A stretch of DNA of 34,850 nt from a virus. Taxonomy: Duplodnaviria; Caudoviricetes. The position numbers were made by a program, and so were the translations under genes. Location: positions 1 through 34,850 of the IMG/VR virus record IMGVR_UViG_3300038673_000123. One strand, 5' to 3'. Below, piece by piece: positions 3,005-19,347 of this stretch (positions are counted from its first letter, which is position 1; each line of letters begins with the position of its first letter). Below the pieces are notes generated by a model, which was not told the origin of the DNA, searched no databases, and was given only the letters and a program-made list of their open reading frames with translations.

Positions 3005-3234
3005 GCGACGCTCCCGAATCCGCCAAGACCCAGTGTGAGCGCCTGCTCGAACACCTCAAACTCGGCCTGCCGTTGACGCATCGCAAAGCCGAGATCGGCT
3101 ATGGGGTCCAGCGTCTTGCCGCACGCATGTACGATTTGAAGCAGCTCGGCCACCAGATCGAAAAGCGGATGGTGGAGGTGCCGACGAGGGATGGGAGGCG
3201 GGCGAGGGTGGCGGAATATTTTCTACAGGCATGA
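3001..3234 (+). CDS. Winged-helix DNA-binding protein (HTH_39-like)
   Basis: TQCERLLEHL...RLAARMYDLKQLGHQI...VAEY pattern; GGAGG RBS. Confidence 0.75.
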   Translation: MSDAPESAKTQCERLLEHLKLGLPLTHRKAEIGYGVQRLAARMYDLKQLGHQIEKRMVEVPTRDGRRARVAEYFLQA

Positions 3235-3269
3235 AAAAAGCCCCGGCGCTGTGACGAGCAATCCGGGGC
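3234..3269 (-). terminator. Rho-independent terminator on the antisense strand
   Basis: GCCCCGG/CCGGGGC stem (3240-3246/3263-3269) preceded by A6 on + (U6 on -). Confidence 0.5.
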
Positions 3270-3292
3270 GAAACAAAAAGGACGGGAAAACG

Positions 3293-5581
3293 ATGTACCA
3301 AGAAAACGGCAATGTCAAGAGCTACACGGACTTCTTGGCTGAGAAGGTTGTCTCTGCGCAACCACTCGGCTTCGACGTGGCAATCGAGGACCTCAACCCC
3401 GCGTTGTTCGACTGGCAAAAGGTGGTCGTGCAGTGGGCAATCAAACGTGGCCGCGCTGCGCTGTTTGAGGCGTGTGGGCTCGGCAAAACCCTGCAACAAC
3501 TCGAATGGGCGCACCAGGTCCACCGATTGACCGGCGGCGACGTGCTCATTCTCGCCCCCCTGGCCGTGTCTTCGCAGACCGTGCGCGAAGGGGCAAAGTT
3601 TGGCATCACGGTCAACAAGTGCCGCAAGCAGTCAGATGTGCGTCCAGGCGTCAATATCGCCAACTACGAGATGCTTGACCACTTCGACGCATCCCACTTC
3701 GCGGGAGTCGTGCTGGACGAATCGTCCATCCTTAAGGGATTCACCGGCAAGATGCGCAACCAGATATGCGCGGCCTTCGCTAATACCCCGTACAGGCTCG
3801 CCTGCACTGCGACACCGGCACCGAATGACCACATGGAACTGGGCAACCATTCCGAGTTCCTAGGCATCATGCCCAACGTCAACATGCTCTCGACATGGTT
3901 CGTCAATGACGGATTCGAGGCTGGCAAATGGCGGCTCAAGGGCCACGCGGCATCCGATTTCTGGCGTTGGGTTTCGACATGGGCAGTCTGTCTTTCCAAG
4001 CCTTCCGACATGGGATTTGATGATGCCGGATACAAACTCCCAGAACTGCGCACAATCAAGCATCACGTCGGTGAAGAGTTCGAGTGCAAGGGCGGCCAAC
4101 TCATCCGCACGCACGCCCCGAGCGCCACGGACCTGGGCCGGGAGCTTCGCGCAACCATCGACATCAGAGCCGACAAGACCGCAGAAATTGCCGCGTCCAC
4201 CGAAGGCCCGGTCCTGATTTGGGTCAACCTCAACGACGAGGCAGAATCCGTCCTGGCTCGCATACCCGAGGCAAAGCAAATCACCGGCTCCATGAGTACG
4301 GACGCCAAAGAGCAAGTCATTTCCGACTTCGTGGATGGGCGTCTGCGCGTGCTCATCGGCAAGCCTTCCATCTGCGGTTTCGGCATGAACTTCCAGCACT
4401 GCGCCGACATGGTTTTCATGGGGCTGTCCTACTCGTTTGAGCAGCGCTACCAGGCCGTGCGCCGGTGCTGGCGATTCGGCCAGACTCGGCCGGTCAATGA
4501 CCATGTTGTGATGAGCGCGTCTGAAGCCAAGATTTTTGAGAAGGTCCACCAGAAGGAGTTGAAGCACATGGAGATGGAGCAGGAAATGAGCGTTGACGTT
4601 GCCTTGACTCACGAAGCCCGTAATCAGTCACAGGGCATGGAGTACCAGCGACGTGAAGTCAGGGGCAAGGACTGGACGCTCGTGAACGGCGATTCCTGCA
4701 AAGAGATCCAAAACATCGAATCCGACTCCATGGGATTTTCCATCTTCTCCCCGCCGTTCTCGTCTTTGTTCGTCTACTCCGATTCCATCCGCGACATGGG
4801 CAACTGTGAATCCGACGAACAGTTCTTTCAGCACTTCGCGTTCCTCGTTCCTGAACTCCTGCGCATCACTATGCCGGGGAGGTTGTGCGCCGTCCATTGC
4901 TCCCAGATTCCGGCCCACAAATGGAAGGACGGAGAGATGGGGCTGAAGGATTTTCGCGGCGACATCATCCGCACATTTCAAAAGGCCGGATGGGTCTATC
5001 ACTCCGAGGTTTGCATCTGGAAGGACCCGGTAGTCGAGATGCAGCGCACAAAGGCGCTCGGGCTCCTGCACAAGCAAATCAAAAAGAACTCGGCAATGTC
5101 CCGCGTTGGGATGCCTGATTACCTAGTTGTCTTCCGCAAGCCGGGTGAAGTCGTCGCCCCTGTCGAACGCCCCAACGGATTCAACCCACGCGCCTACATC
5201 GGAACCGAGGGCGAAGAGTGTCAGACGAGCATCGACGTGTGGCAGAGATACGCTTCCCCTGTCTGGCACGACATCAACCAGACCAACGTCCTCAATGTCA
5301 GGGTGGCCAGGGCAGAGAAAGACGAGCGCCACCTGTGCCCGCTCCAACTCGACGTAATCGAAAGGGCAATCCACCTTTGGACCATCCCAGGGGATACGGT
5401 TTTTACTCCATTCCTGGGCATCGGTTCAGAGGTTTACAGCGCCGTCAAACTCGGGCGCAAGGGCTACGGAATTGAACTCAAACCCGAGTATTTCAACCAG
5501 GCCGTGCAGAATCTCAAGTCCCTGGATGCTGACAAGCGCCACCTGTCCCTCTTGTCCCTCATGCAGTCGGAGGTGGCGTAA
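3293..5581 (+). CDS. SNF2-type helicase fused to a beta-class N4/N6 DNA methyltransferase
   Basis: CGLGKT, LDESS, TATP, QAVRRCWRFGQ helicase motifs; FSPPF catalytic motif then PFLGIGS SAM motif. Confidence 0.88.
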   Translation: MYQENGNVKSYTDFLAEKVVSAQPLGFDVAIEDLNPALFDWQKVVVQWAIKRGRAALFEACGLGKTLQQLEWAHQVHRLTGGDVLILAPLAVSSQTVREGAKFGITVNKCRKQSDVRPGVNIANYEMLDHFDASHFAGVVLDESSILKGFTGKMRNQICAAFANTPYRLACTATPAPNDHMELGNHSEFLGIMPNVNMLSTWFVNDGFEAGKWRLKGHAASDFWRWVSTWAVCLSKPSDMGFDDAGYKLPELRTIKHHVGEEFECKGGQLIRTHAPSATDLGRELRATIDIRADKTAEIAASTEGPVLIWVNLNDEAESVLARIPEAKQITGSMSTDAKEQVISDFVDGRLRVLIGKPSICGFGMNFQHCADMVFMGLSYSFEQRYQAVRRCWRFGQTRPVNDHVVMSASEAKIFEKVHQKELKHMEMEQEMSVDVALTHEARNQSQGMEYQRREVRGKDWTLVNGDSCKEIQNIESDSMGFSIFSPPFSSLFVYSDSIRDMGNCESDEQFFQHFAFLVPELLRITMPGRLCAVHCSQIPAHKWKDGEMGLKDFRGDIIRTFQKAGWVYHSEVCIWKDPVVEMQRTKALGLLHKQIKKNSAMSRVGMPDYLVVFRKPGEVVAPVERPNGFNPRAYIGTEGEECQTSIDVWQRYASPVWHDINQTNVLNVRVARAEKDERHLCPLQLDVIERAIHLWTIPGDTVFTPFLGIGSEVYSAVKLGRKGYGIELKPEYFNQAVQNLKSLDADKRHLSLLSLMQSEVA

Positions 5582-15078: not shown

Positions 15079-15149
15079 GCCGCGCCCGTCCCTCGTTGAC
15101 CTTCGCTTGGCGGCGGGGAGTGTTGACGTTGATAATCATGCGCAACCAC

Positions 15150-15171
15150 AGGCCGGGAGACCGGCCTTTTT
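15150..15171 (+). terminator. Rho-independent terminator between portal and MuF
   Basis: AGGCCGG-GAGA-CCGGCCT followed by a T-tract. Confidence 0.7.
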
Positions 15172-15183
15172 CATGGGGTACGG

Positions 15184-17262
15184 ATGGATAAGACGCAAGC
15201 AGACCTTGACCTGTATTTTCTGACCAGGAACGTCATTTGGCGTTACAAGTTGGACCAGTACGAAGACGCCACGATCCGCGAGATGCTGAAAACGGTACGC
15301 TCTGCCGTGTCGGAGATCAAGCGCGAGATTTTTGATGGGGATGCGCCCGCGAATGCCGATGCACTCATCGAGGAGCTTGACGACCTGTCCGCTGGCCTGC
15401 GCCGGAAGATAGGCGAGGACGTGGCGGCCATGTCCGGCGTGGCTGCGGAGTACAGCGCGACCGAGCACGCGGCCATCATGTCCCTTGACGGGCGCGTGCC
15501 GATCAACACCGTGGCTTTGAGCGCTGCGCAGTTCCAGAGCTTCCTGGGCGGCTCGAACGGCGGGACTCCCCTGCCCCAATGGGTTGACGATGCCTGGGGC
15601 CACGTCGTGAGTGACCAGATCAAGCGCAACCTTAACGTCGCCGTCTTGAGGGGCGAAGGCTATCAAAAAGCCGTGCGCGGGTTGCTCGACTCTACCATCG
15701 CCGATTTCACAGAGAGGGAGGCCGTGACCATTGCGCGAACGTATGTGCAGACTGCCAACGTGGCTGCTCAAATGGCCGTGTACCAGGCCAACGATGACCT
15801 GGTGAAGGGTTGGCGGTGGTCGTCTGTGTTGGAGCCGGGGTATAGCAAGAGCGGGCGCGGGACGTGCCTACGCTGTCAAAGTTTGGATTCGAGAGAATTC
15901 AAACTAGGCGAAGGCCCTAATATCCCACTACATCCCAGATGCGTGACGGGCGACACCCTGATATCTGCGCCGGGCGTGGTTGCCGCTATAAAGATAAAAT
16001 ACTCCGGGCCAATCATAGATATCCGCATTGACAACGGGCGCACCCTTTCTTGTACTCCAAATCACAGGATAATGACCGACAGAGGCGTGAAGTTTGCCGG
16101 GGACTTGGAGCAAGGAGACAAGGTTCTCTACGACAGCGCCCATGTTGACAACCTGCATGGGGAAAAAAATCACTACGGGCTTCCAACCAGAGCGGAAGAC
16201 ATATTCCATTTTTTCTCTGACCGTTTCAAACTTATTATCAGAAAGCCAACTCCTACCGGTGTAGACCTCCACGGCGACGAGCAGTTTGTTGACGGCGATA
16301 TCGACGTTGTAGCGCCCGAAAGCCTTTTGCGGGGTGACTTCGAAACCCTTCTCTTTCAAGACCTGAAGGATATGTTTCTCCCCAGCGCCAACGTGTGTGA
16401 CGTGTTTCTCGCGGGCCTTCGCAAGAGCACATCTATGCTCGTAAGAATGGGACTTTCCGCGCAGAGCATTAGCCGTTTTTTGAGCGTGTTCGATGCGCTC
16501 TTGCTCGGTCATTCTGGCGTACCTGAGCCGGGTACACTCTGCCGTAGTGCGTGGCTTGATTCCAGCCTCAACAAGATTGCGCCGGATGGTTCCTTCGTTA
16601 GTTCCGAAGTGATCGCCGATTTCATACGCACTAAGGCCGCTGGCGTACATGGTGACAATTTCTTGGACGGGCAACTTGATAGAATTTGGATGCTCTGCTC
16701 CAGCCTTTCGGCACTTCATGGCAGAGGTTCTTTTGTCGTTGAACGTGACGCCCTGTCTAACGAGGGCACTTTTGACTGGCTTTCTTCCCCATCCGAGGAT
16801 GTCGCAAATCTCTTTCTGAGTCTTTCCAGCAGCGTAAAGTTGTGCAATGTGGATTTCGTCGGAAGGCGTAGCTTTAATGGGCATGTTTATGACCTCCAAA
16901 GTATATCGTCAACGTATTACAACGAAGGCATGTTGTCAAGCAATTGCAGGTGTGTTGCATTGCCAATAACCAAGACATGGCGCGACCTCGGCATCGACCG
17001 AGACGAGATAGAGGACGCCATCCGCCCGTACACCATCCGGCCAGACGTGAACATCGACGCGGGCGGGATGCGGACCATCATCGAGTCCGGGCGGCACCAG
17101 GGGGATTATGCGTCGTGGTGGGCGAAGCAGGACAAGGCCTTCCGTGTGAATGCGGTAGGCCCTGGCAGGTTTGAGCTTTTGGAGTCGGGGAAGATCAGCT
17201 TTTCTCAGTTGGTTGATTCACAAGGCCGCCAGCGCACATTGAAGGAGCTTCGCAGCCTCTAG
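15184..17262 (+). CDS. Minor head protein (MuF/SPP1 gp7 family) precursor containing an intein; 357 aa after splicing
   Basis: TIART, CLRCQSLD; splicing restores the HPRCRC motif. Confidence 0.9.
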   Translation: MDKTQADLDLYFLTRNVIWRYKLDQYEDATIREMLKTVRSAVSEIKREIFDGDAPANADALIEELDDLSAGLRRKIGEDVAAMSGVAAEYSATEHAAIMSLDGRVPINTVALSAAQFQSFLGGSNGGTPLPQWVDDAWGHVVSDQIKRNLNVAVLRGEGYQKAVRGLLDSTIADFTEREAVTIARTYVQTANVAAQMAVYQANDDLVKGWRWSSVLEPGYSKSGRGTCLRCQSLDSREFKLGEGPNIPLHPRCVTGDTLISAPGVVAAIKIKYSGPIIDIRIDNGRTLSCTPNHRIMTDRGVKFAGDLEQGDKVLYDSAHVDNLHGEKNHYGLPTRAEDIFHFFSDRFKLIIRKPTPTGVDLHGDEQFVDGDIDVVAPESLLRGDFETLLFQDLKDMFLPSANVCDVFLAGLRKSTSMLVRMGLSAQSISRFLSVFDALLLGHSGVPEPGTLCRSAWLDSSLNKIAPDGSFVSSEVIADFIRTKAAGVHGDNFLDGQLDRIWMLCSSLSALHGRGSFVVERDALSNEGTFDWLSSPSEDVANLFLSLSSSVKLCNVDFVGRRSFNGHVYDLQSISSTYYNEGMLSSNCRCVALPITKTWRDLGIDRDEIEDAIRPYTIRPDVNIDAGGMRTIIESGRHQGDYASWWAKQDKAFRVNAVGPGRFELLESGKISFSQLVDSQGRQRTLKELRSL
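15928..16884 (-). CDS. Antisense-encoded putative homing endonuclease (2x HTH + NUMOD3-like + Vsr/DUF559-like nuclease), 318 aa
   Basis: Y..G.T/S..EI...G repeats; RGKSHSYEHR; GEKHI..L...G...QKAFGRYNVDIA...VAVEV; GGAGGT RBS 7 nt before ATG. Confidence 0.85.
   Translation of the reverse strand: MPIKATPSDEIHIAQLYAAGKTQKEICDILGWGRKPVKSALVRQGVTFNDKRTSAMKCRKAGAEHPNSIKLPVQEIVTMYASGLSAYEIGDHFGTNEGTIRRNLVEAGIKPRTTAECTRLRYARMTEQERIEHAQKTANALRGKSHSYEHRCALAKAREKHVTHVGAGEKHILQVLKEKGFEVTPQKAFGRYNVDIAVNKLLVAVEVYTGRSWLSDNKFETVREKMEYVFRSGWKPVVIFFPMQVVNMGAVVENLVSLLQVPGKLHASVGHYPVIWSTRKGAPVVNADIYDWPGVFYLYSGNHARRRYQGVARHASGM
15940..16944 (+). mobile_element. Intein (335 aa, residues 253-587) in MuF
   Basis: Block A CVTGDTLI, block B CTPNHRIMT, block F HVYDLQS, block G SN|C; lower-GC sequence than flanks. 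Confidence 0.92.
16911..16939 (-). promoter_or_regulatory. Sigma70 promoter for the antisense endonuclease, inside intein codons
   Basis: TTGACA (16939-16934)-17 nt-TACGTT (16916-16911). Confidence 0.65.
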
Positions 17263-17455
17263 GCTTGATGCGCACCGTGACTACGTCTGCCAAGTCAGGA
17301 CCAGACCAAACAAGCAATTCTGCGTCCGTGTCGTCATTGGCTAGATCGTGCAGCCTCGCTTCCCTCGCCACGTCTTCAACCGTGTCATACAAAAGCCCCT
17401 GAAACTCGACCTTTCCATTCATCCATCGCGCTTCAAGCGTGACCATCTTTTTCAT
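17195..17455 (-). CDS. Hypothetical protein (MKKMVTLEAR...)
   Basis: AAGGTGG RBS; lies between duplicated MuF 3' ends. Confidence 0.55.
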   Translation of the reverse strand: MKKMVTLEARWMNGKVEFQGLLYDTVEDVAREARLHDLANDDTDAELLVWSGPDLADVVTVRIKPRGCEAPSMCAGGLVNQPTEKS

Positions 17456-17538
17456 ATTCACCACCTTTTGAGTTTGGCGACCTTGTTGATTCACAAGGCC
17501 GCCAGAGGACGCTGGAGGAGTTGGGGAGGTTACGCTAA
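17212..17538 (+). repeat. Duplicated MuF 3' end (21-bp identical core at 17212-17232 and 17485-17505)
   Basis: GTTGATTCACAAGGCCGCCAG twice; LVDSQGRQRTLKELRSL* versus LVDSQGRQRTLEELGRLR*. Confidence 0.85.
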
Positions 17539-17732
17539 ATCTCAATGTCGATTCGCACGGCGATGGACGCAATGCGCTGTCTCCACATTTGGCCGCTCGT
17601 GTCAATCATTGATTCGACATCAGTCCGAATGTCTATGCGTTGTGGGTCAATCTTCGATGCGAGATCGTACAGGATGCGAGTGATGTCTGCCTCTGCCTTG
17701 TGCTTCAGTTCCTTTGCTTCGTTGATATTCAC
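17535..17732 (-). CDS. Hypothetical protein
   Basis: GGAGGT RBS, GTG start overlapping the HTH gene stop. Confidence 0.55.
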   Translation of the reverse strand: MNINEAKELKHKAEADITRILYDLASKIDPQRIDIRTDVESMIDTSGQMWRQRIASIAVRIDIEI

Positions 17733-17908
17733 TTCCCCACCTCCTTTGTCTTTATCAAAAACAGCTCCCACTTAGCCCCGTCCATCGTCCGCCCTCCCCC
17801 CTCCCAGTACCGCCACGCCCTCGGCTGGACACCGACCAGCGCGGCGGCTTGGGACTGCGTGAGGCCCGCACGGTGGCGGGCTTCGCGGATGTCGGTGGGG
17901 CTAGGCAT
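17729..17908 (-). CDS. Small XRE-family HTH regulator
   Basis: IREARHRAGLTQSQAAALVGVQPRAWRYWEGG. Confidence 0.85.
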   Translation of the reverse strand: MPSPTDIREARHRAGLTQSQAAALVGVQPRAWRYWEGGGRTMDGAKWELFLIKTKEVGK

Positions 17909-18260
17909 CTTCGTCACCGCATAGCCTATCAATAGTGCTGAACGCAGAGCCAATCATATCCGGGACGCTGATGTATCCAAGTTGCACGCCGTTTCTGATG
18001 AACTTTACAAGTTCTTCGTTTTCCTTTTTCAGTTCACAAAGGCCCGCAACGCAATCGTCGACCGTAAATCCGTGTTCGCATGTTCCGGCCACTTTGATAA
18101 AGCCCATCCCGCGTAGTGCGAAAAGAACGCTGTCAATGGCTTCCATGGATGGATTGTCAATGTCTGCGGCAACGCGTTGGACATTCTGGATAAACCCAGG
18201 ATCAAAGAACCAACCCATTTTAGCCGACTTCTCGTCTGCTTGCGGAACGTGTTTTACCAT
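17901..18260 (-). CDS. Hypothetical protein
   Basis: AAGGAG RBS; accessory operon. Confidence 0.65.
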   Translation of the reverse strand: MVKHVPQADEKSAKMGWFFDPGFIQNVQRVAADIDNPSMEAIDSVLFALRGMGFIKVAGTCEHGFTVDDCVAGLCELKKENEELVKFIRNGVQLGYISVPDMIGSAFSTIDRLCGDEDA

Positions 18261-18456
18261 TTTGATTCTCCTTAAAATAGTTTGCGCATCTTACGGCATG
18301 TTCGTCATCGCCAAAATCAGAAAGAAATCTGTCTGCTGAAGAATATATCCTAATGTCTTGCTGGTATCTATTTTTCCTTGATGGGCTTGCCTTGATAAAC
18401 GTAGAGAATGCTTGGAACGTCCAATATTCAGAGTAGTATACAACAGAAACATTCAT
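18220..18456 (-). CDS. Hypothetical protein (AT-rich)
   Basis: ATGA coupling with the upstream ORF. Confidence 0.5.
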   Translation of the reverse strand: MNVSVVYYSEYWTFQAFSTFIKASPSRKNRYQQDIRIYSSADRFLSDFGDDEHAVRCANYFKENQNGKTRSASRREVG

Positions 18457-18602
18457 GATTCGCCTCGGCACTTGTCGTTTAACGCATCTCTAGCGATGTC
18501 TCTCATGCTGTGCGCAACATCATCTGCATCACAGTACGGAATTTTCATTTCAGCAATTTCTTGCAGCGCGGATTTCATCTTGTCTTCCCGATCAGTGCAC
18601 AT
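18453..18602 (-). CDS. Small hypothetical protein (MCTDREDKMKSALQEIA..., 49 aa)
   Basis: Read by hand; GGAGGAGG RBS. Confidence 0.55.
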   Translation of the reverse strand: MCTDREDKMKSALQEIAEMKIPYCDADDVAHSMRDIARDALNDKCRGES

Positions 18603-18625
18603 CGTTCCCTCCTCCTTTGAGTGGG

Positions 18626-18811
18626 CTAGGCATTTAGCAACTCGATTTGTCTCTCAAACCATGCGTCCCCTTCTTTTTGGACTTCCAGATCAATGAAGTC
18701 TTGCAGGTAGTTCAGTAAGGGATTGTCATATCCAGGACGCCAATTTCTTGCATGGGATTCAACCTTCCCCATATTCGCCAGTAGCCAAACATATCTGTGT
18801 TTATCTCCCAT
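18626..18811 (-). CDS. Hypothetical protein
   Basis: Hairpin plus AAGGAG RBS module upstream. Confidence 0.65.
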   Translation of the reverse strand: MGDKHRYVWLLANMGKVESHARNWRPGYDNPLLNYLQDFIDLEVQKEGDAWFERQIELLNA

Positions 18812-18816
18812 GATGA

Positions 18817-19111
18817 TCTCCTTTTGAGGGGGCCGTAGCCCCCGGTGTGGTGGTTAGAGGATGGTGGCGTGGCTAGGCATCTTCGTTCTCACGGCGGCGG
18901 ATGTCGGCGGCTTCGTCAATCATAGCCAGCCAATCATCATCTGAAATTTCGTCCGTATCAACGATGCACTCGCGGGAAATCAGGCTCATCATAATGCGTC
19001 CATCCAACTCGTCTGCTTCCGGCCCCATGAGTTCGGCAATCTGGTAAGTGGTCGTGTCGTTCGTGATCTTCATGTCATTCTCCTTTTGAGGGGGCCGAAG
19101 CCCCCGGTGTG
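18817..19111 (-). repeat. 33-bp direct repeat (18817-18849, 19079-19111): UNCG hairpin plus RBS module
   Basis: - strand CACACCGGGGGCT(A/T)CGGCCCCCTCAAAAGGAGA; the only mismatch is in the loop. Confidence 0.9.
18873..19073 (-). CDS. Small acidic hypothetical protein (MKITNDTTT...)
   Basis: Hairpin plus RBS module upstream; very D/E-rich. Confidence 0.7.
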   Translation of the reverse strand: MKITNDTTTYQIAELMGPEADELDGRIMMSLISRECIVDTDEISDDDWLAMIDEAADIRRRENEDA

Positions 19112-19113
19112 CG

Positions 19114-19347
19114 TTAGTATCCTCTGTAGTGAGCGCCGCGCTCAATGTTCTGTTGTTTGTTCCGCCATGCCATGTATTCATTTCGAGCCTTGGCAAGCGA
19201 CTTCTCAAGGGACAGCAGGTAAGACCTGTGGGCTTCAATTTGGAAGTCGTGTTCAAGGGCGCTCATCGCATTCTTTGTTCCAGCAATAGCCGACTCTACG
19301 TTTGCGATCTTTCTTGCGAAGTATTCTTCCGATCTGATGAAAGCCAT
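19114..19347 (-). CDS. Coiled-coil hypothetical protein, first gene of the accessory operon
   Basis: AAGGGGG RBS; directly downstream of the promoter. Confidence 0.65.
   Translation of the reverse strand: MAFIRSEEYFARKIANVESAIAGTKNAMSALEHDFQIEAHRSYLLSLEKSLAKARNEYMAWRNKQQNIERGAHYRGY

Follow-up and report, generated by a model that had tools for sequence, protein, structure and literature searches.

The window analysed here is the whole 34,850-base stretch of IMG/VR virus record IMGVR_UViG_3300038673_000123, which is linear and 65% complete and in which the genes are ordered terminase, lysis, portal, MuF, scaffold, major head and tail. An earlier sequence-only reading of this DNA had proposed that the MuF gene contains an intein whose homing endonuclease is encoded on the opposite strand, and the present analysis follows up that proposal. 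The MuF open reading frame (ORF; 15184-17262, plus strand) encodes 692 amino acids, intein included, and is flanked by the portal gene and the scaffold and major head genes. The features of the locus are listed in Table 1, the block names (A, B, F and G) following intein nomenclature.

The insert comprises MuF residues 253 to 587, running from Cys1 to Asn335 with a Cys directly behind it. The splicing residues C1, T39-P-N-H42, HVYDL, N335 and the +1 Cys are all present, and the penultimate residue is Ser instead of His. In the sense frame, the Pfam family Intein_splicing (PF14890) matched with E 3.4e-7, which is under its curated cut-off, TIGR01445 passed its cut-off of 24.5 bits with 25.0 bits, and the Mtu RecA mini-intein in the PDB was matched with E 2e-5. 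MuF without the intein has 357 amino acids, exactly the length of the product of a natural empty allele (L024), and nine of ten related intein-free loci read HPR/CRC at this position; the sequence-only reading had stated that excision restores an HPxCRC motif. By sequence criteria the insert is a class-1 intein, and splicing is likely. No LAGLIDADG or HNH match was obtained for the sense frame in Pfam, PHROGs or NCBIfam, and yet this frame is stop-free, both as the sequence-only reading had stated. The intein middle (about residues 66-302) gave no family match and no Atlas match of at least 0.8 (best 0.78), and to judge from its sequence it is non-domain filler. The probability that the sense middle is stop-free by chance is about 0.06 in the window alone and 3e-5 to 3e-7 in six AT-rich homologues; for a near-neutral stretch that nonetheless lacks stops, chance is a poor explanation in the AT-rich members.

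On the opposite strand, an ORF of 318 codons begins with the ATG at 16884, while a start at the TTG at 16899 would add 5 amino acids. The two frames lie codon against codon, with 0 stops in that register against 21 and 16 in the other two, and about 950 bases are coding on both strands. The antisense start codon and its putative ribosome site are situated within block F, and the ORF overlaps blocks A and B. A TTGACA sequence at 16939-16934 with a weak −10 element at 17-nucleotide spacing lies near the antisense start and is recorded as a lead only. An extended −10-like sequence (TGnTAYAAT) was found upstream of the antisense ORF in 6 of 18 elements of this type, described below, the window not being one of them.

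The antisense protein carries the two helix-turn-helix (HTH) repeats that had been noticed from the sequence alone: Pfam HTH_23 matched two stretches (E 3e-8), and the family REase MTES_1575 was matched with E 7.8e-6, under its cut-off. A search for relatives returned 870 at E<=1e-10 among 50%-identity clusters, some of them being HTH-repeat proteins. From the 150 relatives listed, with multi-repeat matches and proteins over about 325 amino acids excluded, an alignment of 124 sequences was made, in which MTES_1575 was present in 87 and DUF559 in 18. The AF2 model based on this alignment (predicted local distance difference test score, pLDDT, 84.8) shows a pair of HTH units, followed by a helical linker and then by an alpha/beta domain; a first fold from a 5-sequence alignment (pLDDT 51), the profile of which matched only DARPin/repeat noise in the PDB, was set aside. 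The best VIA-align match of the model was Vsr (1cw0; Z 12.2, root-mean-square deviation 2.2, 109 residues aligned), followed by ngo0050 (3hrl; Z 10.1) and the homing endonuclease I-Bth0305I (3r3p; Z 10.0). This bears out the Vsr/DUF559-like nuclease core that had been suggested. In a profile search the protein matched 3hrl with E 2e-6 and 3r3p with E 8e-5, and Foldseek returned no match at E<=0.001, its top two being 1cw0 (1.5e-3) and 3r3p (1.6e-3). The acidic residues E169, D195 and E206 are conserved in 118, 124 and 120 of the 124 relatives and in 18, 19 and 19 of 19 phage proteins, respectively. According to the accessible text of Taylor et al. (2011, PMC3239194), the active site of I-Bth0305I is formed by E170, D196, H213 and D222, and E169 and D195 align with the first two of these in 3r3p. 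A NUMOD3-like motif claimed earlier was not recovered: the window protein had no Pfam NUMOD3 match at E values up to 1, a search by which short motifs are easily missed, and NUMOD3 was not among the 25 families shown of the 39 matched by the 124 relatives. The likely role of the protein is that of a homing endonuclease.

Searches with tblastn using each frame gave matches in 114 of 50,697 GenBank phage records, and in the matches listed the two frames lie on opposite strands of one MuF or minor-head gene. The match was often stronger for the antisense protein (Aaphi23: 1e-25 versus 1e-6 for the sense frame), and the MuF inteins of Gordonia phages matched with E 1e-14 to 1e-22. The phages concerned infect Salmonella, Klebsiella, Vibrio, Pseudomonas and others. 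We fetched 19 of these records, picked for diversity, and 17 of them hold an intact two-strand element with both frames open; none of the 17 antisense ORFs is listed in a feature table. The other two, from Acinetobacter phage IME285 and Vibrio phage vB_VaM_H2, are discussed further below. Among the 18 elements compared (the window and the 17 intact ones, several of which are close kin, so that the counts are not independent), the stop of the antisense ORF always falls in the stretch from N-extein codon −4 to intein residue 20, and hence the ORF overlaps block B in every case. In 16 of the 18, the antisense start codon and the opening His codon of block F (CAT in 15, CAC in one) are complementary, whereas CAT is used for only 3 of the 18 block B His residues and for 46 of 121 His residues in the exteins. 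A Shine-Dalgarno-like 4- or 5-mer precedes the antisense start in 14 elements. In Rhodococcus phage REQ3 (L017) a homologous intein of 225 amino acids (E 3e-9) begins with Ala, has no block F His and has lost the antisense HTH repeats. Pattern scans for close relatives of the intein or of the antisense protein yielded two short, uninformative matches in IMG/VR and none in the JGI metagenomes; there was consequently no DNA from a close intein-bearing relative, and the clade of the window was compared at the protein level.

The strand on which selection acts was examined in six close homologue pairs, five of which were pooled (Fosterous/Vivi2 was left out because Vivi2 is shared), using uncorrected ratios of nonsynonymous to synonymous differences (pN/pS). 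Over 1017 codons of the intein middle, pN/pS was 0.91 in the sense frame and 0.39 in the antisense frame. The order was inverted in the N-extein (0.24 sense, 1.26 antisense), the N-terminal splicing part (0.34 and 0.67), the C-terminal splicing part (0.30 and 0.99) and the C-extein (0.28 and 1.16). Differences in the middle fell at sense codon position 1 in 345 cases and at position 3 in 224 (p 4e-7). The intein middle is under purifying selection on the antisense strand, and the reverse holds for the exteins. The homologue check suggested in the sequence-only reading has thereby come out in favour of it, both frames being open in 17 of 19 records and the middle being constrained on the antisense side. 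Within the clade of the window, the middle is better conserved in the antisense frame (200/237 identical residues versus 176/237), and the N-terminal splicing part in the sense frame (43/65 antisense versus 58/65 sense). The only conserved-looking sense motif of the middle, DLHGD, lies opposite VAVEV of the antisense protein and is complementary to it. The antisense protein P0003 and the sense protein P0007 are codon-compatible at 225 of 228 positions, which indicates that one element can be entered in databases twice, each strand as a protein of its own. The likely reason why the codon register persists is that stops have to be avoided in the sense frame while the antisense frame bears constraint at the protein level.

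The intein was absent from all 10 MuF loci matched by the N-extein (8/8 in IMG/VR, 2/2 in GTDB), nine of which read HPR/CRC at the site and one HPSCRC. Comparison of the C-extein of the window with L024 revealed differences in 6 of the first 9 codons and in 0 of the remaining 96 (p 5e-8). Over the 27 codons directly upstream of the site, identity to L024 is 0.56-0.67, compared with 0.75-0.89 farther up. The GC content at third codon positions (GC3) of the window is 15/36 in this patch versus 251/321 elsewhere (p 1e-5; the patch was picked after seeing the data). One wastewater contig omits 15821-16972, as would an empty allele with different flanks. The patch is what co-conversion from a lower-GC donor would leave, and its sequence suggests recent movement of the element. 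The antisense stop codon (15928-15930), the complement of the Leu codon at MuF position −4, lies inside this foreign-looking patch, and of the five empty alleles checked, four lack a stop in the antisense frame for at least 100 codons; homing without co-conversion would therefore lengthen the nuclease. The cleavage substrate proposed earlier is made from the joined flanks of the window itself, which look derived from the donor, and it differs from the natural empty alleles at many positions.

Taken together, the nuclease fold, the 17 of 19 records with open frames, the antisense selection, the empty alleles and the conversion-like patch lend good support to the earlier proposal of a two-strand selfish element. 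It is likely that the MuF intein is self-splicing and that the opposite-strand HTH-HTH-Vsr-fold gene in its codon register encodes a homing endonuclease that would cut intein-free MuF; from sequence and model we infer its expression, the splicing and the cleavage. The 692-residue precursor would be converted into MuF of 357 residues by class-1 splicing that involves Cys1, the His of block B, the Asp of block F, the terminal Asn and the +1 Cys, with about 235 filler residues carried in the intein as an unstructured loop. A leftward transcript would be translated from the GGAGG and ATG written into block F. The HTH repeats and the linker would bind the intein-free MuF site and the Vsr-fold domain would cut, upon which, in a co-infected cell, repair from the intein-bearing phage would copy the intein plus some flank. 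A fuller version is possible and is put forward tentatively. It holds that the enzyme may be an active, His-independent (E-D-E) Vsr-fold homing endonuclease with its start and ribosome site in block F and its tail over blocks A and B, that it may have spread among the MuF genes of phages from different bacterial phyla and moved here recently, that the asymmetric conversion tract (about 81 nucleotides up, 27 down) may mean that cutting takes place on the upstream side of the insertion site, and that L024 may represent the matched natural target.

Several observations weigh against an active homing element in the window. The column of I-Bth0305I His213 and Vsr His69 is occupied by Leu in the window protein and in P0001-P0004 (W-L replacing W-H), while 87 of the 124 relatives have His there, and no Asp is found in the clade of the window at the column equivalent to Asp222. 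Of the EDxHD label given to the protein earlier, only the first half holds, since E169 and D195 match but the His and the last Asp are missing; we therefore regard the protein as Vsr-fold homing endonuclease-like and do not class it as EDxHD. The sequence-only reading had supposed that the nuclease may be expressed separately, decoupled from late MuF expression; a sigma-70 consensus scan of 15700-17300 found 0 promoters where 0.9 were expected. A leftward cassette just downstream of MuF makes read-through a possible source of the antisense transcript. The selection test covers the elements of other phages, not that of the window, and population variants in the clade of the window (the 40 best-supported of 176 sites) were distributed 21/7/12 over the sense codon positions, which is the same direction but not significant (p 0.16). 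In Vibrio phage vB_VaM_H2 (L022), 96% of the length of the sense intein is covered by the match to the MuF insert, which gave no match to the antisense protein at E 1e-2 and may hold a diverged or different antisense gene. As for the flank patch, DNA identity between the N-extein and L024 is no higher than about 80%, so that an ordinary crossover just downstream of the site could also produce the sharp downstream edge, and the signal is weak at the protein level (of 27 residues, 23 are shared with an intein-bearing allele, 20 with L024 and 22 with a distant empty allele). The loss of the His and Asp, together with the predicted disorder of the final 38 residues of the model, raises the possibility that the family homes but that in this clade the nuclease has lost its activity or binds DNA only, the intein still splicing and the antisense ORF being a decaying or repurposed passenger. 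We consider this unlikely, because E169, D195 and E206 are all intact, because the W-H motif is likewise missing from the majority of the intact phage members, which nonetheless show purifying selection on the antisense frame, because the antisense frame of the window is better conserved than the sense frame, and because the flank patch suggests recent movement.

It is also conceivable, with a considerably smaller probability, that a mini-intein here merely shelters a free-standing endonuclease gene, the antisense ORF, which is independent of it and cuts elsewhere, in which case the intein would not be mobilised as a unit. A free-standing relative does exist in Acinetobacter phage IME285 (L011, MH853786.1:455-1348), where it is annotated as hypothetical and runs antisense towards a MuF gene without an intein, converging on its 3′ end; this copy would fit the idea that a free-standing endonuclease once entered a mini-intein. 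In the two-strand elements, however, the start and ribosome site coincide with block F in most cases and the end lies over the N-terminal splicing region in all 18, which makes the gene inseparable from the intein, and the flank patch is centred on the intein site. It is hardly credible that the antisense ORF merely shadows the sense gene or arose as an artefact of assembly. In-register antisense frames are indeed often open in GC-rich genes (317 amino acids over the portal gene), but the nuclease fold and the invariant acidic residues speak against this reading, and so do a 7.3-kb contig with zero differences to the window over 15100-17424 (possibly from the source sample itself) and the occurrence of relatives of the intein middle in four wastewater runs from three studies; the strand-reversed pN/pS of the intein middle already refutes it.

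Table 1. Features of the MuF locus, with positions in the window.
Feature	Position	Strand	Basis
MuF N-extein (SPP1 gp7-like head morphogenesis protein), ends H-P-R	15184..15939	+	Pfam Phage_Mu_F E 1.9e-6; phrog_241 E 8e-37
Putative co-conversion patch, upstream part, 27 codons, low GC3	15859..15939	+	Identity drop to L024
Antisense ORF, 318 amino acids: HTH-HTH-helical linker-predicted Vsr-fold nuclease; stop codon in N-extein codon −4	15928..16884	−	ORF list, Pfam, model
Class-1 intein by sequence criteria, 335 amino acids: Cys1, TPNH block B, HVYDL block F, terminal Asn	15940..16944	+	Profiles and sequence
Predicted Vsr/DUF559-like nuclease domain, residues 163-278, with E169, D195, E206	16051..16398	−	VIA-align; conservation
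Block B, T-P-N-H, doubly read as antisense ORF	16054..16065	+	Sequence
HTH repeat 2, residues 73-106	16567..16668	−	Pfam HTH_23/28/38; model helices
HTH repeat 1, residues 7-43	16756..16866	−	Pfam HTH_23; model helices
Block F, H-V-Y-D-L; His codon CAT is complement of antisense ATG	16882..16896	+	Sequence
Putative Shine-Dalgarno-like GGAGG, 8 nucleotides upstream of antisense ATG, built from block F Asp-Leu-Gln codons	16893..16897	−	Sequence
MuF C-extein, begins C-R-C, +1 Cys nucleophile	16945..17262	+	Sequence; empty-allele comparison
Putative co-conversion patch, downstream part, 9 codons	16945..16971	+	Codon differences to L024

The closest GTDB relatives of MuF are on a 40-kb contig of a Dissulfurispiraceae metagenome-assembled genome (80%) and in Solidesulfovibrio alcoholivorans (38%). 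The best-matching sequencing runs carry the label bioreactor metagenome, and further relatives come from wastewater runs; the runs were available as contigs only, and those labelled RNA are probably DNA, so that they are silent on transcription or strand. The intein-bearing MuF homologues P0006, P0008, P0009 and P0012 have varying C-terminal extensions, comparable to MuF polymorphic fusions, one of which is an ADP-ribosyltransferase (PF03496); the MuF of the window has no such extension. The leftward cassette (17195-19347), which separates MuF from the scaffold gene, is made up of small ORFs and holds an ORF of 59 amino acids at 17729-17908 that, judged by eye, is HTH-like, a 33-nucleotide repeat with a hairpin at 18817 and 19079, and a 44-nucleotide repeat at 17871 and 18843. 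Part of the 3′ end of MuF (17212-17247) is copied at 17485-17520 (36 nucleotides, 86%). An Rfam search of the window gave zero matches. Farther away, at 3191-5581, a helicase of 796 amino acids is encoded, the C-terminal part of which matches PHROG DNA methyltransferase families.

The sequence-only reading had supposed this architecture to be undescribed, which does not stand: full inteins with anti-sense VSR-like endonucleases are on record from actinobacteriophages (Gosselin, Arsenault & Gogarten, bioRxiv 10.1101/2025.01.02.630785), and the locus is thus not the discovery of a new kind. The accessible text of that preprint gives a Z of 10.6 to 1CW0 and an HHpred match to 3R3P for the anti-sense ORF, states that without exception the endonucleases of minor-capsid (IPR006528) inteins are non-canonical, and refers to anti-sense LAGLIDADG inteins of 1998 and 2002. 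The same text, as far as accessible, does not contain the start and ribosome site in block F, the overlap of blocks A and B or the missing EDxHD His and last Asp; its supplementary tables may already cover codon register, membership and start sites. This preprint alone was found in a literature search for anti-sense Vsr-like inteins, and a literature search for MuF inteins in phages found no paper. In sources that were partly accessible, we found no experimental study of an anti-sense intein endonuclease, and none shown to be expressed or to cut. The two-strand intein layout is nevertheless real and widespread in phages, being rare in print and common in genomes. Genes annotated as head morphogenesis in many cultured phages conceal an unannotated nuclease gene. 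The locus offers a clean test pair in the form of an occupied allele and a nearly identical empty one, and it represents natural dual-strand coding under measurable, region-switching selection.

Compared with canonical class-1 inteins such as Mtu RecA, the window element has the same blocks A, B, F and G and the +1 Cys. It differs from those with an in-frame LAGLIDADG or HNH endonuclease in that its nuclease lies outside the excised protein, and in the penultimate Ser. Gorbalenya in 1998 and Gogarten in 2002 reportedly described inteins with splicing encoded on the sense strand and a LAGLIDADG endonuclease on the other; the strand layout is alike, but the nuclease family is different. With I-Bth0305I and the EDxHD family, as presented in the accessible text of Taylor et al. 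(2011, PMC3239194), the window protein shares N-terminal DNA-binding modules, a C-terminal Vsr-fold domain and the equivalence of E169/D195 to E170/D196. I-Bth0305I is, however, intron-encoded and has NUMOD where the window protein has two HTH repeats, and the window protein is without equivalents of His213 and Asp222. The closest parallel is with the inteins of Gosselin et al. (2025), of which, going by the accessible text, the window element has the contiguous intein with a presumably unstructured sense insert, the absence of an in-frame endonuclease match and the anti-sense ORF of Vsr fold with similarity to 3R3P. Their set is from actinobacteriophages, a group to which the window, as far as its relatives show, does not belong, but their minor-capsid intein of 225 amino acids from REQ3 is homologous to the window element.

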